A DNA stretch of 64,000 bases from a virus. The notes beneath the pieces were generated by a model that saw only the letters and a program-made list of their open reading frames with translations, searched no databases and was not told the DNA's origin. Position numbers and translations under genes: made by a program. Each line of letters starts with the position of its first letter. Within the stretch, counting starts at the first letter, position 1. Below are positions 36,022 through 47,793 of the stretch, in pieces. The stretch spans positions 24,487 through 88,486 of IMG/VR virus record IMGVR_UViG_3300030329_001671; one strand, 5' to 3'.

Positions 36022-37146
36022 ATGAAACTACGTAACTTTTTAGGGGCTGTGAAAGACTTGATTCTGATGCCCTTTAAGAAAACTCCTGTTAGAAAATTAG
36101 GAACACTTCTACTTTGGACACCAAAAAAGATTGGATGGGTTCTTAGGAAAATACTCCATGGTATTGTAATAGGTCCTAGTTACGTATTTAGAGCGATTAT
36201 AAAATCCCCTAAGAAAGCGTTTAGAAAAGCTATGATTATTAGAGATTGGATGTTGGAAAAGATAGATTACCTAGAAGCGGAGTCGGCCAAGTGGAAGCGT
36301 ACATTCCAGATTATAAAGTCTCCATACAGTTTACTACTAAAGATGGGATTCTCACCCCAGTATGCGATTGGTTTAATAGCTGTAGGTACGACTGCTACTA
36401 CTGGTGTTGTGGCAAACGAAGCTATGAAGCCACCGTCTTTCGCAGCAGGAGACCCCGGCATTTATAATGCACCGACAGACTCACCTATATTTAGTGCTAA
36501 AGAATTTAATACGTTGCGCCTAGATTTGGGTACAACTCCTATTGGGTTAGTTGAAATCTCAGATATTACTGTAGGTACGGCATATAGTAACTCTGCTTTG
36601 CCTCAAGGTGAAACAAAGCCTGTAATCGTTGGTGGTTTGCCGGCGGTTTCCGATCCTGCCTTTGCGGAAACGTTCCTTGAGGTTGGACACATGACTGTGG
36701 AGAAGTGGAGGTGTGACCAACTGTTGCTAACTAATATTGAGGCTCATGATCTCATAGTCAGGGATAATGCTTCAGATGGGCAATCAATCTCTGCAACTGC
36801 GGGTACTCCAAGAGACCGGGGTATTTCTGGTGGTAACAGAGCAGCGGATATGTACACAAGCGGTGGCTACTATGACCAAGTGAAAATCACAGCAGCAACC
36901 ACAAACGTAAACGGAAAGATCGACAGACTAGTTCTAAACAACCTCTACACGAAAGGTGGGGCTTGTGTTCTCGACAGAATCAAGGCGGGTACACTGGAAA
37001 TAATTTTGAATGAGGTTGGACTTGGTAATGGTTTTGCGACTAAGGAATTCCAAATAGCTACTAGCGTTGTATACAAAAACTTCACAAACGAAGACAACGT
37101 AGAAGTTTCTATTGCATCCGCTCCTGCCGCAGCGGGACCAAGCTAG
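36022..37146 (+). CDS. Membrane-anchored protein with beta-rich C-terminal domain
   Basis: Basic amphipathic N-terminus, TM segment near aa 110-130; preceded by GTATAATA at 35966. Confidence 0.65.
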   Translation: MKLRNFLGAVKDLILMPFKKTPVRKLGTLLLWTPKKIGWVLRKILHGIVIGPSYVFRAIIKSPKKAFRKAMIIRDWMLEKIDYLEAESAKWKRTFQIIKSPYSLLLKMGFSPQYAIGLIAVGTTATTGVVANEAMKPPSFAAGDPGIYNAPTDSPIFSAKEFNTLRLDLGTTPIGLVEISDITVGTAYSNSALPQGETKPVIVGGLPAVSDPAFAETFLEVGHMTVEKWRCDQLLLTNIEAHDLIVRDNASDGQSISATAGTPRDRGISGGNRAADMYTSGGYYDQVKITAATTNVNGKIDRLVLNNLYTKGGACVLDRIKAGTLEIILNEVGLGNGFATKEFQIATSVVYKNFTNEDNVEVSIASAPAAAGPS

Positions 37147-39638: not shown

Positions 39639-39833
39639 ATGGCACGAAGAGGAGTAAAGTCATTGCAAGAGGAATTAGAGGAATACCAAGAGTATCCGGC
39701 AAAAGATTTGCATGACCGGACCCAGCACGAAATTTTAGAAAAACTTTACTGGCAACTGGTTTATACCCGGCAAGTACTTACTGGAATGGGAATGGTCGTC
39801 ATCGTCGTCTTGATCCTGCTGATGCTAAAATAG
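39639..39833 (+). CDS. Small membrane protein
   Basis: GGAGG RBS; C-terminal TM helix. Confidence 0.55.
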   Translation: MARRGVKSLQEELEEYQEYPAKDLHDRTQHEILEKLYWQLVYTRQVLTGMGMVVIVVLILLMLK

Positions 39834-39846
39834 AACAGGTGTTCTA
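39831..39846. promoter_or_regulatory. LexA/SOS-box-like palindrome
   Basis: TAGAAC-AGGT-GTTCTA. Confidence 0.7.
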
Positions 39847-39933
39847 AATTTCACGAATAAATTGGGCAGGGTCGGCGTCTTCCTTTTTGGCCCTTACTTC
39901 GTGAACTTAGTTCTCTCTTTTTATGTTACTTAT

Positions 39934-39962
39934 ATTATAACATACACTTCTACCCTTGTCAA
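39934..39962 (-). promoter_or_regulatory. Leftward consensus sigma70 promoter
   Basis: Minus strand TTGACA-17 nt-TATAAT (perfect), with TG extended -10. Confidence 0.85.
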
Positions 39963-39981
39963 GTCTTTTTGGAGGCAATTT

Positions 39982-40113
39982 ATGAAACAGGCCGAACTTA
40001 CCCGGTTGATGGCTGAGGCCGAGCGGGCGGAGGAAGAAGATTATCAGCTGGCTATCATGAAATATCTCTCTGTTATAGCTCATTCCCTACTTATAGCTGA
40101 CGAAGACGACTGA
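39982..40113 (+). CDS. Small acidic protein
   Basis: GGAGG RBS before ATG 39982. Confidence 0.55.
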   Translation: MKQAELTRLMAEAERAEEEDYQLAIMKYLSVIAHSLLIADEDD

Positions 40114-40265
40114 CTGGAGGAATAGAGCTCCAGTTCAGGCAGCTGAAAAATTTAGAAAAACTTCCCAGTAGCCAGATCCCAGCTACCCAGTGTTTCAGGT
40201 CTCCCGGTGTTCCCGGCCAGATCCGGGGCAAAAATTTAGAAAAGTTGTAATTTCTTATAAAGGTG

Positions 40266-40294
40266 TTGACATGTCCTGAGCTGTCTGTTATTAT
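40266..40294 (+). promoter_or_regulatory. Early sigma70-like promoter
   Basis: TTGACA-17-TATTAT. Confidence 0.8.
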
Positions 40295-40323
40295 ATAAGC
40301 ACACAAACAGGAAGGAAAGAAAA

Positions 40324-40602
40324 ATGTATAAGTTCTTCAGCACACCGTCACACGGATACCTAGCTGTTCCGACAGCAGACTACGAAGCTAGCGGATATAA
40401 GGCTTCCCGCTTCTCCTACAAGCTAGGAGAGCAGTTAGTCTACCTAGAGGAAGATTGCGACGCTAGAGGCTTCATGGACGCTTTCAACGTGTCACTTGAC
40501 GACGTAAAGGAAGTTGTGATAGACTACGACCTAACGCAACGAAAGTCTCTCGAACCGATGAGTGGCGAAGGTTTTGAACTAAGAATAGGAACGGGATACT
40601 AA
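40324..40602 (+). CDS. Conserved early phage hypothetical protein
   Basis: P.HGYL.V...S.FSY....VYLEEDCDA motif. Confidence 0.75.
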   Translation: MYKFFSTPSHGYLAVPTADYEASGYKASRFSYKLGEQLVYLEEDCDARGFMDAFNVSLDDVKEVVIDYDLTQRKSLEPMSGEGFELRIGTGY

Positions 40603-40603
40603 A

Positions 40604-40696
40604 ATGATTAGATGTAACGAGTGTGGACGAGCATTCGACCTGAACGATACTCGTGATGCCGATGAGTGGTATCACGGTCATGACTGTGAGGTATAA
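40604..40696 (+). CDS. 30-aa zinc-binding microprotein
   Basis: MIRCNECGRAFDLNDTRDADEWYHGHDCEV; fills the gap between coupled genes. Confidence 0.65.
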   Translation: MIRCNECGRAFDLNDTRDADEWYHGHDCEV

Positions 40697-40697
40697 A

Positions 40698-40823
40698 ATG
40701 ACTTATGTAGTATGGGTTGGTGGTGTAGACGACCACTACCAAACAAAAGAAGAAGCAGAGCAAGCAACCAAAGAATGGAAAGAGAAAGGCTACGACGATG
40801 TTATCCTTGAACTACGACCATGA
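40698..40823 (+). CDS. 41-aa early microprotein
   Basis: GAGGT RBS; YVVWVGG...W..KGYDDV.LE. Confidence 0.65.
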   Translation: MTYVVWVGGVDDHYQTKEEAEQATKEWKEKGYDDVILELRP

Positions 40824-40850
40824 ATGTGCGGAAAGGAAAATTTAGAAAAA

Positions 40851-41114
40851 ATGACGACTAAACAACGATATGAAAAAATGTTTGTGACGGTTCCTGAGTC
40901 TGCATTAGACGACCCTAACCATGAATCCGCAATAGAGGACATGAATGGGTACATCGAGCGTATGGGGGGAACCGCACACGCTCCTGATGGTATGGACTAC
41001 TCTTGGACTGTTCCCGCTCACTGGACCTTTAGGTTCTACGAGCGATTCAAGTCCTTTGGTCTCAATGCTAGAGTACTTCCCGGTTCGCATTGGTTTGGAA
41101 TGTTAGAAAATTAG
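40851..41114 (+). CDS. Early hypothetical protein
   Basis: ORF in early operon. Confidence 0.6.
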   Translation: MTTKQRYEKMFVTVPESALDDPNHESAIEDMNGYIERMGGTAHAPDGMDYSWTVPAHWTFRFYERFKSFGLNARVLPGSHWFGMLEN

Positions 41115-41117
41115 GGG

Positions 41118-41146
41118 TTGACAAGCATAAAAGTTTATGCTATAAT
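41118..41146 (+). promoter_or_regulatory. Early promoter driving small ncRNA 1
   Basis: Perfect TTGACA-17-TATAAT; the spacer is itself an inverted repeat AGCATAAA-AG-TTTATGCT. Confidence 0.85.
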
Positions 41147-41154
41147 ATAGTCAA

Positions 41155-41227
41155 GCTAGTGAGGCGGGCATGGTCAGACATTCCCTTATGAAGATAAGAT
41201 GACACGCTGAAACCGCCCGCCCCTAGC
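41155..41227 (+). ncRNA. Putative ~75-nt hairpin ncRNA
   Basis: GCTAG/CTAGC, GCGGGC/GCCCGC, GGT/ACC, CAG/CTG and CTTAT-GAAG-ATAAG nested stems after a dedicated promoter; no ORF. Confidence 0.6.
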
Positions 41228-41254
41228 AGAAAAAATATTAGAAAAAGATAGGTG

Positions 41255-41283
41255 TTGACATGTAGTAAAAAGTATGCTACAAT
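41255..41283 (+). promoter_or_regulatory. Early promoter driving large ncRNA
   Basis: TTGACA-17-TACAAT. Confidence 0.8.
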
Positions 41284-41289
41284 ATATGT

Positions 41290-41710
41290 ATGAGGTAAGG
41301 AACTGAGAATTCCTAATGAACAGACTAACTGCGGGTTAGCGCAAGCCTTAAAAAAGCATACCTGTTCAGACTTATCAGTACCTCTAGGAGCGGGAGTGAG
41401 GATACACGCAACAGTCTTAGTTACTTAGTAAAGTATTCAACTCCAATGCTCCGACACTCGGAGTGGAGACTGAAGGGGTCATTACCCGCCACCTGTTTCA
41501 AACGCAGAGTCCAGTCTCAACTGAGGGGAGCGAAAATAGAATATTGAACCATGCAAATGTCCCTCATTCATATGGCAGCATCACAAGTAGTGAGCAATGA
41601 AGAATCCTAGGATAACTTCTCAGCCGATGTCTTGTAATATGCAGACCATCCCTGAACTGCACACATCCCTCTGTTGAATCATATTCTAATATCGCTCCCC
41701 TCTTTTATTT
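41290..41710 (+). ncRNA. Putative ~410-nt multidomain structured ncRNA
   Basis: Four closed domains (GAGGTA/TACCTC, GGAGC/GCTCC, GAGACTG/CAGTCTC, GAGGGGAGCGA/TCGCTCCCCTC), a terminal T-tract and no ORF of 60 aa or more. Confidence 0.72.
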
Positions 41711-41716
41711 AAAGAC

Positions 41717-41745
41717 TTGACAGCCTCTTTGTACTATGCTAAAAT
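41717..41745 (+). promoter_or_regulatory. Early promoter
   Basis: TTGACA-17-TAAAAT. Confidence 0.8.
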
Positions 41746-41767
41746 ATATGTACAAGGAGCAAATGAC

Positions 41768-42025
41768 ATGAACTTAACAAAAGATGGATACCTAGTCGGA
41801 CAGAGCGGTGTGCTTGTTACATGCCCTATCTGTCTCGGTGACATGTGCGGTTGCTACGATGACCTTGAGGTCAAGGGATACCGCATCTGTAAGGGTTGCG
41901 CTAGTGAGTACGAAGCGCATTGGGGTCGCCCACCGTCTAAGGGAACGATTAGCAAAGCTATCAAAGCATTAGTCGCTCAGGGGTTGTGGGACAGAAAAAC
42001 CCACAGCGTCCCTAAAGCGGCGTAA
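41768..42025 (+). CDS. Cys-rich early protein
   Basis: AAGGAG RBS; CPIC...CGC...CKGC. Confidence 0.65.
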   Translation: MNLTKDGYLVGQSGVLVTCPICLGDMCGCYDDLEVKGYRICKGCASEYEAHWGRPPSKGTISKAIKALVAQGLWDRKTHSVPKAA

Positions 42026-42041
42026 AGGAAAATTTAGAAAA

Positions 42042-42251
42042 ATGACACAGCAAGACACATTCTTGGCCTCCCTACGGGGACAATACATCATGGCGCAAGC
42101 CTTAGAGGTTGCCATTGATACGCTAGAAAAAGTAGAACCACCATACATGAGGGAAGAATCCAACATAGCGGACATGAAGTTCCTAAGAGAAAAATTCAAC
42201 TTCCCGATCTTCATGGAGCGGGCATTCCTAGCACAGAAATTTGGAGAATGA
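42042..42251 (+). CDS. Early hypothetical protein
   Basis: S.RGQYIMAQAL..AI..L......E.SNI.DM motif. Confidence 0.7.
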   Translation: MTQQDTFLASLRGQYIMAQALEVAIDTLEKVEPPYMREESNIADMKFLREKFNFPIFMERAFLAQKFGE

Positions 42252-42330
42252 TATGAGAAGGGAAACCATTTGCCTATTCCCTCCCTCATTCCCTCCTATT
42301 CCCTCTAGGCAATAAGCCAATATAGAGGGG

Positions 42331-42375
42331 AATCCCCTAGCAGTTCAGTCATTTCTGCTAGGGGATTTTTTATTT
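42331..42375 (+). terminator. Rho-independent terminator
   Basis: AATCCCCTAGCAG...CTGCTAGGGGATT + T-tract. Confidence 0.85.
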
Positions 42376-42639
42376 CCCCGGCCTTTCTCCAGTAGTTGGA
42401 GGGAAAAATTTAGAAAAAATCTTCAGGAATCACTGGACGAGGCCTACTGGATCTACCAATTTCCGTTTATCAATATACATTCCGCCCAGTCTTCAGCTGG
42501 AATTCTGGTCTGGTGCAGCTGGATCTGGGAAAAATTTAGAAAAATCCCCCCGGCGGATGTAGTCGGGATGCTTCCGGCTCTGATCCCAGCATCCTAGCTC
42601 CCAGCCGGGAATTGCCGGGTCTGGCTAAAATTTAGAAAT

Positions 42640-42668
42640 TTGACGACTCCCCGGTTTTCTGCTATACT
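42640..42668 (+). promoter_or_regulatory. Early promoter
   Basis: TTGACG-17-TATACT. Confidence 0.7.
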
Positions 42669-42686
42669 TTCCGGCCGGAGGAAAAA

Positions 42687-42941
42687 ATGGAAAAAGAAAC
42701 ATACTCGCCCCTATCCAATAAAAAGACTAGGGAGCCATTTTTAGAAAAAATCCAAATATTACATGAGGCTATGGAAAATGTAATTGAGGCACATGAAACT
42801 TGGTTACAGGACGCAACCGATTGGACGAAAAAAGATGAGAGCGGAATGGTTCGCATGTCTCGTTCATGGCTAGACGAATCTCTTGAGGAGGGCAAAGACG
42901 CTCTCAAAAATTTGAAAAAATATAAAATCTTTCAAAATTGA
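42687..42941 (+). CDS. Early hypothetical protein
   Basis: GGAGG RBS. Confidence 0.65.
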   Translation: MEKETYSPLSNKKTREPFLEKIQILHEAMENVIEAHETWLQDATDWTKKDESGMVRMSRSWLDESLEEGKDALKNLKKYKIFQN

Positions 42942-42953
42942 TAGAAAAACCTC

Positions 42954-42982
42954 TTGACAAACGGTTTTCGTTCCTATAATAT
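42954..42982 (+). promoter_or_regulatory. Early promoter
   Basis: TTGACA followed by TATAATAT (15-17 nt spacer). Confidence 0.65.
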
Positions 42983-43018
42983 AGGTAGTACATCAAAACA
43001 AGTGATTTGGAGAAAACA

Positions 43019-43363
43019 ATGATTATCACCCCACAACAGTACCCTACCTTATCAAAAGAGGTCAAAGGCGACCCTCACAATTTCCTAGCGGGAGATGAGA
43101 TAGAAATTTCGGGGACACGTTTCCCTGTGGTACGTCGCATATTCAACGTAGAAGGCGAAATCGAAAAGGTGCTAGTTGCCAAGACGCATGTTCGTATGAG
43201 TGTGCAGAACGATTACCTTGACGCATTTGAAGATGCGATGGAAACCAAAAATTCAGAAAAACTTGAAGATATCGCTCACAAGATATTCGATCAAGTTGGT
43301 ACAACTCTAGTTTCATTGTACGGATTTGAGGATAGTCGTCCTAGCGACGATGAATCTAAGTAG
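43019..43363 (+). CDS. Early hypothetical protein
   Basis: GGAG RBS; own promoter and terminator. Confidence 0.65.
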   Translation: MIITPQQYPTLSKEVKGDPHNFLAGDEIEISGTRFPVVRRIFNVEGEIEKVLVAKTHVRMSVQNDYLDAFEDAMETKNSEKLEDIAHKIFDQVGTTLVSLYGFEDSRPSDDESK

Positions 43364-43383
43364 GTTTCTCCTACCTCTTGTTT

Positions 43384-43422
43384 CTCCCCTACCCACCTAA
43401 TGGGTAGGGGAGTTTTTATTTT
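43384..43422 (+). terminator. Rho-independent terminator
   Basis: CTCCCCTACCCA-CCTAA-TGGGTAGGGGAG + T-tract. Confidence 0.85.
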
Positions 43423-43427
43423 AGCAC

Positions 43428-43456
43428 TTGACAAATTATAAATTTTAGGATATCCT
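43428..43456 (+). promoter_or_regulatory. Early promoter
   Basis: TTGACA-17-TATCCT. Confidence 0.7.
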
Positions 43457-43476
43457 TACGTGTAAGGAGAAAAGAA

Positions 43477-43752
43477 ATGTCTACATACGATTACCTAAAA
43501 ACTGAATCTACTGAGGAGCGAGTGCCAAAAGACGCTGACATCTCGGTAGCCGAAAACTTGAGGTTGTTGCAAGTTGGCGACAGAATCGACGTTTACTCCC
43601 CTATTACTGAGGATTGGACATACGCTTCAGTTCTAAAAGCGAGTGACGATTGGATTGAGACTATATTCACTGATGGTGAGGTTGTAGTTTTTAGTCTAGA
43701 TGAAATGCCGATTTGGAAAAATGAAGGATTCGATATAAGGAGTGCAGTATAA
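43477..43752 (+). CDS. Early protein, SH3/Tudor-like
   Basis: LQVGDRIDVY.....W..A.V pattern; AAGGAG RBS. Confidence 0.65.
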   Translation: MSTYDYLKTESTEERVPKDADISVAENLRLLQVGDRIDVYSPITEDWTYASVLKASDDWIETIFTDGEVVVFSLDEMPIWKNEGFDIRSAV

Positions 43753-44198
43753 TGCCTAATTGGTGCAGTAACGAAGTGCAGGTATATAGCACAAAAGAAA
43801 ATTTAGAAAAATTTATCGACGAGTGTTTCACAGATTTCAAAGGAACGCCTGTTTTAGATTTCAATAAGGTTCTGCCCGAACCTGACTATAAGAAACCACA
43901 GAAAGACGGTACGCATAACAATGGAGTGCAGACTCAGTTATCTACTGTAATGCCTGATTGGTGGACTTGGCGCAATGATACGTGGGGTACGAAATGGAAT
44001 CTAGTACCTAGCGATGACAGTACCTTAGATGGTTACGAGATATTCCAAACCGATGACTGTCTAGAGTTGAGGTTTGATACGGCGTGGTCACCACCTAACG
44101 GTGTCTACGATGAAATTGTTGACAAATACCCTGACCTTGATGTAACGTGGTTCTATCGAGAAGATGGCATGCAGTTTGCAGGTTGGTTGCCTGACTAA
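43752..44198 (+). CDS. DUF1281/YubB ferredoxin-like (Api92-like) protein
   Basis: MPNWC.N, LDFN...P.P, W..WR...WGTKWN, FDTAWSPP, Y.E.GM.FAG. Confidence 0.85.
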   Translation: MPNWCSNEVQVYSTKENLEKFIDECFTDFKGTPVLDFNKVLPEPDYKKPQKDGTHNNGVQTQLSTVMPDWWTWRNDTWGTKWNLVPSDDSTLDGYEIFQTDDCLELRFDTAWSPPNGVYDEIVDKYPDLDVTWFYREDGMQFAGWLPD

Positions 44199-44207
44199 GG
44201 AGTAGTT

Positions 44208-44336
44208 ATGAATTGGAAAAATTTGAAAAAAGCTTGGCAGGAGTCAGGCGACGAGCGTTGGATACAGCACCCGAAGGGTCATCGAGCGCAGAAGAAAGCC
44301 GAGAGGCGCAACCGCAAAGAGGGTAGGCTAAGGTAG
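44208..44336 (+). CDS. 42-aa basic Trp-containing microprotein overlapping the tRNA 5' end
   Basis: AAGGAG RBS; MNWKNLKKAWQESGDERWIQHPKGHRAQKKAERRNRKEGRLR. Confidence 0.55.
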   Translation: MNWKNLKKAWQESGDERWIQHPKGHRAQKKAERRNRKEGRLR

Positions 44337-44389
44337 CCAACAGGTCTCCAAAACCTGAGGAGTGAGTTCGATTCTTACACCCTCTGCCA
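44318..44389 (+). tRNA. tRNA-Trp (CCA), slightly atypical D arm
   Basis: AGAGGGT/ACCCTCT acceptor stem, GGCT/AGCC D stem, CAGGT-CTCCAAA-ACCTG anticodon arm, GTGAG-TTCGATT-CTTAC T arm, G discriminator and encoded CCA. Confidence 0.85.
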
Positions 44390-44390
44390 C

Positions 44391-44421
44391 TCCCCTAGCA
44401 TTTGCTAGGGGATTACTTTTT
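44391..44421 (+). terminator. Terminator after tRNA
   Basis: TCCCCTAGCA-TT-TGCTAGGGGA then T-rich tail; same stem as the 42331 terminator. Confidence 0.75.
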
Positions 44422-44439
44422 ACACCTAAAGGAACGATT

Positions 44440-44928
44440 ATGAGATATTTTACTGGAGCTCCCAGTAGCGACACGGAGAAAATTTTAGAAAAAGTGGCCG
44501 GAAAGTATCAAGCCCGGCATCTATCAAAGAACTCGAAGAAAAGGAAGGCCAGAAAGATTTTTACCGAGAAATCTCTTGAGCAGGCCAAGAAAAATTGGAA
44601 AGATGGAAAGAGAAGTAATTGGTCTTACGATAAAGAGGCTTGGCTAGAAGCAACAGTTCGTACTGAAGAACTGGACATGGGGCGTTATTACTGGATCTCC
44701 CGGAACTGGGAGAAGACCGGGGCCTTTGTAAAAATTTTAGAAAAAAGTACCGAGCTCAATCCAGCTGGTCTGCCGAGCAGCGTAACTGTCGAAGTAGTAA
44801 AACCAGTAGGGGCTTACCAGTTAGGTCAGATAAAACTTATGAACGCCACCCAGATCTTTGACCACCGGGCGCATGCCAGCAAAGAAAATTTTAGAAAATA
44901 TCTAGCCGGGGAGCCTTACATTGTTTAG
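44440..44928 (+). CDS. Basic hypothetical protein
   Basis: AAGGA RBS before ATG 44440; the track start at 44362 lies inside the tRNA. Confidence 0.55.
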   Translation: MRYFTGAPSSDTEKILEKVAGKYQARHLSKNSKKRKARKIFTEKSLEQAKKNWKDGKRSNWSYDKEAWLEATVRTEELDMGRYYWISRNWEKTGAFVKILEKSTELNPAGLPSSVTVEVVKPVGAYQLGQIKLMNATQIFDHRAHASKENFRKYLAGEPYIV

Positions 44929-45011
44929 AAAATTTTCCCAGAAGGTGCGGCGGTACTGGACTGCACAGCGTTGCGGTTGGGACGGAATATGTGCCGAGTC
45001 ACATAAATAAT

Positions 45012-45040
45012 TTGACACTCTGGAGTTTTTATGTTATTAT
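45012..45040 (+). promoter_or_regulatory. Early promoter
   Basis: TTGACA-17-TATTAT. Confidence 0.8.
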
Positions 45041-45062
45041 ATAGAGAACAGGAGTAAATGAA

Positions 45063-45203
45063 ATGAAACAGACATGGGTACTAAGAGAATGGGTCAAGTG
45101 GGTTATATTCTTCACGATTCTATATTTCTTACTAGTATGGGTAGGCTTTCCAATGCCTGAGGTCACCCTACCCTCTGTAAGTTGGGACGGAGTTTGTAAC
45201 TAA
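45063..45203 (+). CDS. 46-aa membrane microprotein
   Basis: AGGAG RBS; WVIFFTILYFLLVWVGF TM helix. Confidence 0.6.
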   Translation: MKQTWVLREWVKWVIFFTILYFLLVWVGFPMPEVTLPSVSWDGVCN

Positions 45204-45242
45204 TGGAAAAGAAAAATTCTAAAAATCCGTGGTGGGCATACA

Positions 45243-45392
45243 ATGACTAAAGTTATACATAGAACACTAAGAGGATACTCACACGAATGCGAAATCGTGG
45301 GGGAAGGTGAAGAAGTAGGTCGTAAGGTTTACGACTTAGCGTGTGGCAAGTGGGCGTGGGAAGAACAAGTAAAAATTCAGAAAAAGGATTGA
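45243..45392 (+). CDS. 49-aa early microprotein
   Basis: Fills the gap, coupled to 45394. Confidence 0.5.
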   Translation: MTKVIHRTLRGYSHECEIVGEGEEVGRKVYDLACGKWAWEEQVKIQKKD

Positions 45393-45393
45393 G

Positions 45394-45639
45394 ATGACAA
45401 CAATAGCAAGAAATAGAAATGAAGCAGAAGTGTATATCATGGACGTTATCGACAAGCTAGGGGGAGGCACAATCACGCAACCCCTACTTGACGACTCCGA
45501 CCCTGATTTTCCATTCGTAGGCTTTAGAGTCGTCAAAGACGAGCAGACGCTAAACGTATGGGTACTACGTGACCCTGAAGGTAATGGAAGCGGTCACCTG
45601 TCGATAGAAGAACCAAATCAATTTGGAAATTTTGATTGA
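45394..45639 (+). CDS. Early hypothetical protein
   Basis: WVLRDPEGNG.G.L motif. Confidence 0.7.
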   Translation: MTTIARNRNEAEVYIMDVIDKLGGGTITQPLLDDSDPDFPFVGFRVVKDEQTLNVWVLRDPEGNGSGHLSIEEPNQFGNFD

Positions 45640-45663
45640 CAATTCACTCCTCCCTGTTATAAT
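45636..45663 (+). promoter_or_regulatory. Early promoter
   Basis: TTGACA-16-TATAAT. Confidence 0.7.
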
Positions 45664-45682
45664 AAATAGCAGGAGGAAGGAG

Positions 45683-45820
45683 ATGAATATAAAAACTGAA
45701 CACAACGGGGCGAAAAACGGCGGGGGATATTGGGGTACTAGGAAGGAAGCAAAGAAATTCAGTTCACGTATACGGCGCATAAATGCCAAAAGTGAAATCA
45801 AACAACAGCTTACCGACTAA
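45683..45820 (+). CDS. Small basic protein
   Basis: AGGAGG RBS; KTEHNGAKNGGGYWG.R.EAK..S...RR motif. Confidence 0.7.
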   Translation: MNIKTEHNGAKNGGGYWGTRKEAKKFSSRIRRINAKSEIKQQLTD

Positions 45821-45842
45821 CCCACCCGCCTACATAAAGAAG

Positions 45843-45920
45843 AACCCACCAACTCGGTGGGTTTTTTGTTGACCAAAATTTAGAAAAATACTTGACGGTC
45901 GTTCTGCCCTATGCTATAAT
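45843..45920 (+). promoter_or_regulatory. Terminator-motif-promoter cassette, copy 1
   Basis: AACCCACC..GGTGGGTTTTT, CCAAAATTTAGAAAAATAC, TTGACG-17-TATAAT. Confidence 0.85.
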
Positions 45921-45948
45921 ATATGTATAACAAGACAGGAGAGAAGAA

Positions 45949-46209
45949 ATGACCCTAAAAATCAACAACCTAAATCGTGATGCAGAAGATTATCTGATTG
46001 AGTTCGTACATGGCGAGCAGGAAGCCGACAGAAATTGGTACTCCCCTATCGTAGATGTTCAATCCATCGAAGATGCCGTACAGTGGCTTACCGACAATGA
46101 GTACGATTGGAAGGAGATGGTTCTAAAGTTTGCGCCGAACCAGAAGTGGGACGACATGGATTGGCAAGAAAAGGAGTGGTGGATACAAAAGGAACAAGGC
46201 ATACGATGA
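45949..46209 (+). CDS. Acidic Trp-rich early protein
   Basis: AGGAG RBS; own promoter and terminator. Confidence 0.7.
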   Translation: MTLKINNLNRDAEDYLIEFVHGEQEADRNWYSPIVDVQSIEDAVQWLTDNEYDWKEMVLKFAPNQKWDDMDWQEKEWWIQKEQGIR

Positions 46210-46227
46210 CCCCTACCACTAAACTAA

Positions 46228-46306
46228 TAACCCACCCTAGCAGGTGGGTTTTTATTGTCCAAAATTTAGAAAAATACTTGACGCCTAAAGCAGAAGGTGA
46301 TATAAT
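46228..46306 (+). promoter_or_regulatory. Terminator-motif-promoter cassette, copy 2
   Basis: AACCCACC..GGTGGGTTTTT, CCAAAATTTAGAAAAATAC, TTGACG-17-TATAAT. Confidence 0.85.
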
Positions 46307-46326
46307 TTAGAACAAGGAGGATAGTT

Positions 46327-46542
46327 ATGAAACTACCATTTGATGTACCGATTATCGACACCGAACCACAAGTAGTGAAGAACCGATTCGGTGGAGGGTC
46401 AGCCACCCTAACACCCGAAGCGGTAGCGGTATACGACACAATCATCGGAGCAGAGCAGTTCCACGACTACGAGACAGTTCAGAAGGGTTTAGCTTGGTTC
46501 GTGAAGCACTACCCCGAAGAATATATGGTACTACTAGACTAG
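46327..46542 (+). CDS. Conserved early hypothetical protein
   Basis: NRF.G....LTP...AVYD.I.GAE...GL.WF...YP..YM.LLD motif; AAGGAGG RBS. Confidence 0.75.
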   Translation: MKLPFDVPIIDTEPQVVKNRFGGGSATLTPEAVAVYDTIIGAEQFHDYETVQKGLAWFVKHYPEEYMVLLD

Positions 46543-46559
46543 TAGTCGAACTCACCAGA

Positions 46560-46591
46560 AAGCCCGCCATTCGGCGGGTTTTTTGCTTTTT
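46560..46591 (+). terminator. Rho-independent terminator
   Basis: GCCCGCC-ATTC-GGCGGGT + T-tract. Confidence 0.85.
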
Positions 46592-46699
46592 AGGACAAAA
46601 TTTGAAAAATTCTAAAAATTTACGACCAGATGCCAATTCCTACGTAGTTATAATATAAATGTACCAACTGGGTACACGGCACGAATCAGGAGAAACTGA

Positions 46700-46879
46700 A
46701 TGGCGAAGAACGTCAAACTGCTCGATATTGTAAACGATAGCCCAAATTACGTGATAGATGTAGTTGAGAAACTATGGAGCATCGTTACAGACATACCAAA
46801 ACCAGTTCAAATTGTTCTGGGAGCTGCAATTGTGGGGCTGGTGCTGGAAAACTCCGGCTATATAACCCTCCCCTTTTAG
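46700..46879 (+). CDS. 59-aa membrane microprotein
   Basis: AGGAG RBS; C-terminal TM helix; followed by a terminator at 46908-46950. Confidence 0.6.
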   Translation: MAKNVKLLDIVNDSPNYVIDVVEKLWSIVTDIPKPVQIVLGAAIVGLVLENSGYITLPF

Positions 46880-47035
46880 TAAAAATTTAGAAAATTAGTA
46901 AAGACAGCCCGGCTTCCGCCCTACACTGGGGGAGCCGGGTTTTTATTTTTACCCGGTACAGCTGCAGGATCATTGGGTACAGCTGCAGGCTCGCCCAGTA
47001 TAGCTCAGGCCAGAAAAGAAAAATTTTAGAAAAAC

Positions 47036-47064
47036 TTGACAGAGCAGATTCTACCCCTTATAAT
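47036..47064 (+). promoter_or_regulatory. Early promoter
   Basis: Perfect TTGACA-17-TATAAT preceded by AAAATTTTAGAAAAA. Confidence 0.85.
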
Positions 47065-47095
47065 AAGGAGACAACATTTAGAGCAAGGAGAGAAA

Positions 47096-47476
47096 ATGGG
47101 TTTTGAATCATTAGGAAGAAAAGAAGCCAAATTTTTGGCATCAGTTAGTCAAGAGAAACTAGCCGAAACGTTCAAAGAAATGGGTTTGACCGTCGATATG
47201 GGACGTTCTACCTATTACGCCGAAGGTCACAAGTTAGACTTCAAGTTCTCGGTGGAACTACCTGAGAAAGCGGACGTTATGAAAAATTCAGAACTTTCGT
47301 TATATGGGTTAGATGCTAAGGTCGGAGATGAGTTCTCGGATTGGAGTGGAACTAAGTTCCGAATACTCGGAGTCAACAAAAAAGCTAGGAAGTACCCTAT
47401 CAAGATACTACGTCTAAGCGATAACTCACAACGAAAAGCACCTGTTGACTTTGTTCGGCGAGCATTGAAAGGATAA
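47096..47476 (+). CDS. Early hypothetical protein
   Basis: AAGGAG RBS; YGL...VG.EF....F.I.G......KYP motif. Confidence 0.7.
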   Translation: MGFESLGRKEAKFLASVSQEKLAETFKEMGLTVDMGRSTYYAEGHKLDFKFSVELPEKADVMKNSELSLYGLDAKVGDEFSDWSGTKFRILGVNKKARKYPIKILRLSDNSQRKAPVDFVRRALKG

Positions 47477-47494
47477 AAATTTAGAAAATTTAGA

Positions 47495-47552
47495 AAACCC
47501 GTCAGTGATGGCGGGTTTTTTATTTGACATATATCGAATATGGGTGTAAAGT
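47495..47552 (+). promoter_or_regulatory. Terminator fused to next early promoter
   Basis: AACCCGTCA-GTGA-TGGCGGGTT + T-tract, then TTGACA-17-TAAAGT. Confidence 0.75.
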
Positions 47553-47580
47553 ACATATAACGAAAACAAGGAGCGAGAAA

Positions 47581-47793
47581 ATGAAAACACTAACAAAACA
47601 ACACCTAGATGAGTTTCTAGTATTAGCTAATGGGTTATCTCCCGAAAACCTACACATGGACGGTGAAGCTACTAAAAAGCAGGTTACGCAACGTCGCAAG
47701 ATTCTAATGGGTCAATGGCGACAGTTAGAAAAAGCCGTTGGAAGAAAAGTCACCGAAGAAGATGTTTGGCAAGAGTTTTTCGCTAGGAGATAA
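47581..47793 (+). CDS. Conserved early hypothetical protein
   Basis: LSPENL..DGE......R...L......LE...GR.V.E motif; AAGGAG RBS. Confidence 0.75.
   Translation: MKTLTKQHLDEFLVLANGLSPENLHMDGEATKKQVTQRRKILMGQWRQLEKAVGRKVTEEDVWQEFFARR

Follow-up and report, generated by a model that had tools for sequence, protein, structure and literature searches.

Between positions 41255 and 41710 this phage offers a strong promoter and a T-tract with no credible protein gene between them, which raises the question of what is transcribed there and what the product would do. The window, by which we mean the whole 64,000-nt stretch of DNA analysed, is one part of an 88,486-bp IMG/VR virus record. The phage is tailed and encodes a PolA-type polymerase along with a DnaB-like helicase. 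Its DNA polymerase is at most 27% identical to those of isolates, so that the phage lies very distant from them. The locus sits within a run of small genes rich in near-consensus sigma-70 promoters. Relatives in IMG/VR, found via the DNA polymerase and a 374-aa gene, have genes in common with it up to position 37146, and nothing downstream of that position was common to them. Since small genes and promoters that these relatives do not conserve make up the RNA-bearing stretch, it is presumably an early, hypervariable region. The 85-aa CxxC protein encoded next to the RNA has relatives at 76–87% identity, its gene is also present in loci without the RNA, and the promoter of this gene, 51 nt upstream of the gene start, is conserved; its AlphaFold model was poor (pLDDT 61). 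Searches of Pfam and PHROGs with the proteins neighbouring the RNA gave no match, and every match of the 96-aa protein encoded upstream stayed below 0.8 in an Atlas search. In the same region we observed that TTAGAAAAA occurs 22 times in the window (1.9 expected), with 15 copies on the + strand of the early region. The copies spread over 39735–47733 (e.g., at 41238, 45880, 46266, and 47026), often just a few bases ahead of a -35 box, and copies precede promoters in related loci too; TTAGAAAAA may be a UP-like or regulator site.

The first-pass annotation had proposed a dedicated promoter and a terminal T-tract around a region without a credible ORF, and each of these statements held (Table 1). 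All loci that carry the RNA conserve its promoter, the next promoter begins at 41717, after the T-tract, and transcription would start at about 41290. We favour the reading that 41290–41706 is a stand-alone non-coding RNA of ~417 nt. On the + strand between 41191 and 41717 there are just two ORFs, of 33 aa and 45 aa (the latter with a GTG start, 41463–41600), and neither was conserved when sought in the homologs. All three + frames carry stops in 14 of 14 homologs, and the place and frame of ORFs differ from one homolog to another. Variable columns fall by codon position as 24/41, 28/45, and 20/43 (14 homologs), with no third-position excess, and the covarying positions, as read off the sequence, are first codon positions of the 45-aa ORF. 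A mini-ORF, ATG-AGG-TAA, was also considered as coding and rejected, being unconserved among homologs.

Table 1. Coordinates of the RNA, its parts, and the adjoining transcription signals in the window.
Feature	Position	Strand	Description
Upstream perfect sigma-70 promoter	41118–41146	+	TTGACA-17-TATAAT with TG; 12/12 matches
Hairpin of ~85 nt from the upstream promoter	41147–41232	+	without own terminator; -32.1 kcal/mol, z = -5.9
RNA promoter	41255–41283	+	TTGACA-17-TACAAT, TG extended -10; 11/12 matches
Domain 1 (5' hairpin)	41292–41384	+	closing stem GAGGU/RCCUC conserved in the family; interior lineage-specific
Domain 2 (exchangeable module)	41387–41452	+	closed by GGAGC/GCUCC
P0 mini-hairpin	41455–41465	+	CACUC-G-GAGUG; 3–4 bp plus triloop
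Domain 3 (three-way-junction core)	41466–41518	+	P1 GAGACUG/CAGUCUC, P2 GGGG/CCCY, P3 CUGU/GCAG
Domain 4 (module X)	41525–41700	+	9-bp closing stem GGGGAGCGA/UCGCUCCCC around H2, H3, H4, and H5
Apical 13-nt loop	41603–41615	+	palindrome UCCUAGGAU, with CCUAGG at 41606–41611
U-tract (T-tract)	41701–41709	+	follows the closing stem; intrinsic-terminator-like 3' end
Downstream transcription unit	41717–42025	+	promoter 41717–41745 and 85-aa CxxC...CxxC protein gene 41768–42025; adjoins the RNA, separate

Public sequencing runs holding at least part of the stretch numbered 20, from 14 studies, and six of them were RNA libraries. The mapping to metatranscriptomes that the first-pass annotation had suggested bore out its proposal in part, in that contigs from four metatranscriptome runs (three studies) map to 41288–41696, as contigs without strand or level. 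One contig of 373 nt runs from 41288, 5 nt past the -10 box, to 41695, within the 3' stem, and carries another domain 2 (the joint lies at 41390/41447, with 20 different letters between). Another from an RNA library (X16) covers 41288–41390 with no mismatch, and two contigs at 100% identity span 41365–41696; the ends at 41695 and 41696 belong to two contigs that both come from one study, and we therefore give their agreement no weight. A contig with both ends at the predicted transcript ends is as expected of a discrete RNA, bearing in mind that assembled contigs show neither strand, ends, nor level, and that RNA libraries can carry DNA. The flanks (40600–41270 and 41698–42400) had no contig cover in the four RNA runs, which carries no evidential weight. 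In run X3 we observed a metatranscriptome contig that forms a 137-nt cycle, in which a CCCTC microhomology links 41696 back to 41560. Template switching by reverse transcriptase from one RNA end to another could account for it, as could a processed fragment or a circular form of the RNA.

The structure of the RNA was evaluated by folding. The 421 nt from 41290 to 41710 folded at -119.3 kcal/mol, against -102.0 ± 5.2 kcal/mol for 100 shuffled sequences (z = -3.3), and none of the shuffles was as good, as the proposal of a structured RNA had anticipated. The fold z-scores of relatives were -7.5 (minimal homolog L076) and -6.1 (L067). Covariation among homologs, likewise put forward as a check, was seen in every core helix, with one compensatory pair each (P0, A-U/G-C; P1, G-C/A-U; P2, G-C/U-A; P3, U-A/C-G), and several further core pairs are invariant. 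In the core, 97.5% of cells are standard-paired, compared to 37–57% with the partners slid. P0 is 100% paired, and it arises independently in the minimum free energy (MFE) folds of L076 and L067. An extension of P1 offered by RNAalifold (AGU/ACU) was rejected as it fails in L067-type members, and P0 was preferred for its covariation. Across the 55 pairs of domains 3 and 4 in 14 homologs, 91.6% are paired (42–50% slid) with 17 compensatory pairs (3–5 in slid controls), figures obtained on closely related sequences with a test structure that was derived from the window's own sequence and is thereby favoured over the slid controls. Helices 5–12, those of module X, are 77–97% paired in the 14 homologs, and compensatory changes occur in H2 (AGAAUAU/AUAUUCU), H4 (GCAU-ACAAG/CUUGU-AUGC), and H5 (UGAG-AAG/CUU-CUCA). 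H3 (CCAUG/UAUGG) is the weakest at 77%, most relatives having a neighbouring hairpin, UCCC/GGGA or UUCUG/CAGAA, instead. The helices named in the first-pass annotation are all in place and complementary except in two details: in this phage the inner GGGG/ACCC hairpin closes its loop with a G-A pair, and the strands given as CTTC and CTCA both use base 41619.

Homologs were gathered by aligning relatives of the 85-aa CxxC protein and scanning metagenomes, which yielded 49 marine loci, and the family was then defined by BLAST, promoter mapping, alignments, and a core covariance model, R1. R1 matches 26 times (18 distinct sequences), in the window and in 25 loci from marine metagenomes, once per locus and always behind a homologous promoter; as every homolog was reached via one neighbouring gene, the diversity sampled is narrow (R1 effective sequence number 1.64). 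The window's match, at the domain 3 core, scores 96.2 bits and is the sole copy in the phage genome. The members follow one plan, consisting of the promoter, a 5' hairpin (GAGGU.../...RCCUC), P0, the three-way junction, a 3' closing stem, and the U-tract. The conserved unit is ~70 nt, of which the three-way junction takes ~55 nt, and the junction strands RAA, GCMAM, and AGAGUC are made of near-invariant nucleotides. The three-way-junction core is the signature of the family. Lineages that share only 63% identity in the neighbouring protein have cores that are ~85% identical.

Around the core, the RNA is modular. Family members measure about 170 to roughly 500 nt (417 nt here), and lineage-specific modules interrupt the 5' hairpin, J1/2, the P3 loop, and the 3' stem, or follow the 5' hairpin. 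Domains 1 and 2 take up 136 nt in the window and 67 nt in the closest relative, L038; BLAST of the interior of domain 1 (41303–41379) against the loci found no homolog. Domain 2 is common to L040, L043, and L046, shorter in L038, and absent in L042 and L063. The P3 loop carries insertions in L046 and L052, and J1/2 in L069–L075. At the 3' end, domain 4 gives way to a plain terminator hairpin in L076, whose whole RNA is ~170 nt, L067 has a different module of ~100 nt there, and L070 has two modules. Since domain 4 is dispensable or replaced in L076 and L067, it cannot be the functional centre, and the conserved centre is the small domain 3, with the large domain 4 optional. The earlier description of a four-domain RNA thus stands for this phage, which has four stem-closed domains, and does not extend to the family, where domains 1, 2, and 4 are optional or exchangeable.

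Within module X, the palindromic loop UCCUAGGAU is invariant in 14 of 14 homologs that have the module. Covariation cannot speak for pairing in a loop that never varies. The hexamer CCTAGG is avoided, the window having 3 sites where 13.4 are expected. The CCUAGG loop is a candidate site for kissing-loop dimerisation or for symmetric protein binding. It is absent from members of the L067, L070, and L076 types; dimerisation therefore cannot be the core function of the family.

A second transcription signal lies upstream of the RNA. BLAST of 41101–41149 found the perfect promoter there homologous to the RNA promoters of the "group B" relatives L043, L048, and L065, and this likeness to another sub-lineage suggests recombination between family variants. 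The ~85-nt hairpin unit that follows occurs only in this phage and in L038/L039 (99% identity). A second copy of the family may have left this unit behind as a remnant promoter plus 5' hairpin, or it may be an extra module at the 5' end.

We next turn to how the RNA compares with known families. Over the whole window only one tRNA reached the Rfam threshold, so the novelty claimed for the RNA was upheld as far as catalogued families go; rows listed at E <= 10 for 41000–41900 (snoRNA, VrrA, mir-239, OmrA-B) were far below their thresholds and in the wrong strand or context, and we set them aside as chance. In agreement with the lack of tmRNA and intron hallmarks stated earlier, ARAGORN and Rfam returned no tmRNA at 41255–41710, there is no conserved reading frame downstream of the core, and no Rfam ribozyme or group I intron matched the RNA. 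The junction strands do not fit the usual hammerhead core, and GAGACUA/UAGUC resembles the group I R and S elements in one helix only. Two further ideas were tried and dropped: a CsrA sponge (the ~6 GGA motifs in 417 nt are at chance level) and a tRNA without a T-arm (the P3 loop is unconserved and takes insertions of 18–30 nt). Beyond Rfam, blastn against 50,697 phage records found no match to the RNA region, and exact-pattern scans for the core and module X gave 0 matches in viral contigs and 0 in genome contigs.

Outside the window, we observed a 140-nt mini-tmRNA (G000:C1:22736–22875; L087:1237–1376, + strand), which scores 64.9 bits with the Rfam tmRNA model (gathering score 47) and has a full tRNA-like domain and a CCA end, with ~54 nt where ~288 model positions normally lie and no ARAGORN call. 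A 10-mer, GTCTCAACTG, placed behind a GAGAY/RTCTC hairpin, is common to the mini-tmRNA and the studied RNA; since it is unconserved in the RNA family, the sharing is probably chance.

Nearest in kind are GOLLD and ROOL, phage RNAs that are "often near tRNA islands", whose function is unassigned, and which assemble via kissing loops (PMC12286853). They resemble the present RNA in being phage-encoded, highly structured, and often adjoined to tRNA genes, an adjacency seen in 10 of 13 close relatives here, and GOLLD, like this family, consists of a conserved and a less conserved part. Their self-assembly through kissing loops may be set beside the invariant palindromic CCUAGG loop as a lead only. 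The RNA is much smaller than either, with a conserved unit of just ~70 nt, and the GOLLD and ROOL models matched neither the window nor 11 homologous loci. Small RNAs C and D of phage T4, which come from the T4 tRNA region and whose roles are unassigned (PMC3014915), are comparable by description as small stable phage RNAs co-transcribed with phage tRNAs; they lie within the tRNA cluster, whereas the RNA studied here is transcribed from its own promoter, lies ahead of the tRNAs, and is retained where they are missing. Taking the evidence together, we are highly confident that this is a real, expressed, structured family of non-coding RNAs, and consider it likely that the RNA belongs to a hitherto uncatalogued family of modular structured RNAs in marine tailed phages.

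The company that the RNA keeps differs among relatives. Ten of 13 close relatives have tRNA-Tyr(GTA) and/or tRNA-Asn(GTT) starting 6–7 nt past the U-tract with no intervening promoter, from which it follows that in those relatives the RNA is the 5' part of an RNA-tRNA precursor and that the closing stem cannot terminate fully. One example of such trailing tRNAs among L040–L066 is L040:2741–2903. The RNA is also kept, with a near-identical core and no tRNA after it, in this phage and at least 12 loci, and nothing promoter-less lies downstream in the window, L038, L044, L047, and L067–L076. The tRNA nearest to the RNA here is a tRNA-Trp 2.6 kb away. This tRNA-Trp(CCA), the sole tRNA in the window, is followed immediately by a terminator hairpin at 44391–44412 (together 44318–44412).

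The RNA is not universal among related phages. Model R1 did not find the core in 5 records of related phages, of which 4 are at least 90% complete, and L050–L062 are without both the RNA and the upstream 96-aa gene (40824–41114). The stretch 40824–41709 behaves as an insertion/deletion cassette, and the RNA is accessory cargo of the hypervariable early region, probably with no core phage function. We observed that the 96-aa gene and the RNA (plus tRNA-Tyr/Asn in relatives) are jointly present or absent between the conserved genes 40324–40602 and 41768–42025, and that RNA-less loci have a 74–77-aa ORF upstream of the 40324 homolog. tRNA-Tyr(GTA) and tRNA-Asn(GTT) belong to the queuosine-modified group with GUN anticodons, and some anticodon nucleases have this group as their targets. 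The identity of the tRNAs could be a hint that the cassette serves in anti-defence.

How might the RNA act? Driven by its strong sigma-70 promoter, it would be made early in infection and accumulate as a stable species. In relatives it would come first in an RNA-tRNA(Tyr)-tRNA(Asn) precursor, from which tRNA 5' processing (RNase P) would free it, with its 3' stem as a shield. It would then act in trans, the junction core binding a host or phage factor as scaffold or decoy, and the palindromic CCUAGG loop of module X could pair two RNA molecules. Judging from the architecture, we lean toward an early, stable, trans-acting accessory RNA whose junction is a likely factor-binding site and whose module X loop may pair two molecules. 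The narrower claim of a scaffold or decoy that acts in trans by binding a factor at its junction core, also read from the architecture, is a tentative assignment that we hold at slightly short of even chances.

Among other explanations, the one that survives best, though we consider it unlikely, is a riboswitch-like element or cis attenuator in which the junction is an aptamer that sets transcription past the closing stem and U-tract into the tRNAs or the next gene. The RNA has the compact junction of terminator riboswitches, with invariant junction nucleotides, variable and insertion-tolerant loops, and a terminator downstream, which in L076 is a canonical hairpin directly behind the core, and the promoter-less tRNAs past the U-tract in 10 relatives need some read-through. 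What it lacks is the overlapping expression platform of such riboswitches: P1 (ending at 41518) and the terminator stem (starting at 41525) are adjacent without overlap, no conserved alternative (anti-terminator) pairing was seen, and in L076 the MFE structure is the centroid structure. Large modules within the terminator stem are atypical for expression platforms as well, Rfam gave no riboswitch match, and many members have no gene to regulate, since the window, L038, L044, L047, and L067–L076 carry no promoter-less gene downstream and the next gene has its own promoter.

It is more doubtful still that the RNA merely leads a phage tRNA operon or scaffolds its processing, functionless once cut off. 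Co-transcription with tRNA-Tyr and tRNA-Asn in most close relatives is what such a leader would show, and T4 RNAs C and D likewise come from a tRNA region (PMC3014915); yet this phage and at least 12 loci keep a near-identical core with no tRNA behind it, and a core identity of ~85% next to 63% for the neighbouring protein is a constraint stronger than a spacer needs.

We find it very improbable that the RNA is a 6S-like decoy of RNA polymerase with domain 4 mimicking an open promoter, as the resemblance noted in the first-pass annotation had implied. 6S RNA is similarly an abundant, promoter-driven, structured non-coding RNA, and the present RNA is promoter-driven and early, with a domain 4 of ~180 nt and a long closing stem. 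However, 6S RNA is a rod with a central bubble that mimics the open promoter, whereas domain 4 is multi-branched (H1, H2, then H3, H4–H5), with no central bubble flanked by long helices. No model of 6S (RF00013 and clan) reached its gathering score in the window or gave a match at E <= 10 over 41000–41900, and domain 4 is absent in L076 and replaced in L067, members that keep the core, so we abandoned the likeness. Equally improbable is that there is no RNA gene at all, only a small protein or a DNA-level site (origin, operator, or recombination site), for which one may cite the 45-aa GTG ORF and two conserved palindromes (CACTC-N-GAGTG and CCTAGG), given that the ORF is broken in homologs and has no codon-position bias, that compensatory changes preserve helices distant in sequence, and that a promoter and a U-tract frame an element on which RNA-library contigs lie.

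Returning to the trans-acting accessory RNA, phage structured RNAs that adjoin tRNA genes (GOLLD, ROOL, and T4 RNAs C and D) are an old puzzle with functions unassigned. The family offers a tractable in vitro model, having a sharp 70-nt core, a natural minimal member of ~170 nt, natural domain swaps, and contigs from ocean metatranscriptomes, and it is suited to structure, oligomerisation, and pull-down work. A speculative extension, which we regard as a long shot, is that a particle self-associating through the CCUAGG loop forms, together with the co-transcribed tRNA-Tyr and tRNA-Asn, an anti-defence cassette in which the junction core is the bait and the modules track host variation. If true, such a cassette would, for example, decoy or block a host nuclease that targets tRNAs, or some other defence factor that acts early. 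The finding would add an RNA to the exchanged early-region cargo of phages, which is usually seen as small proteins.
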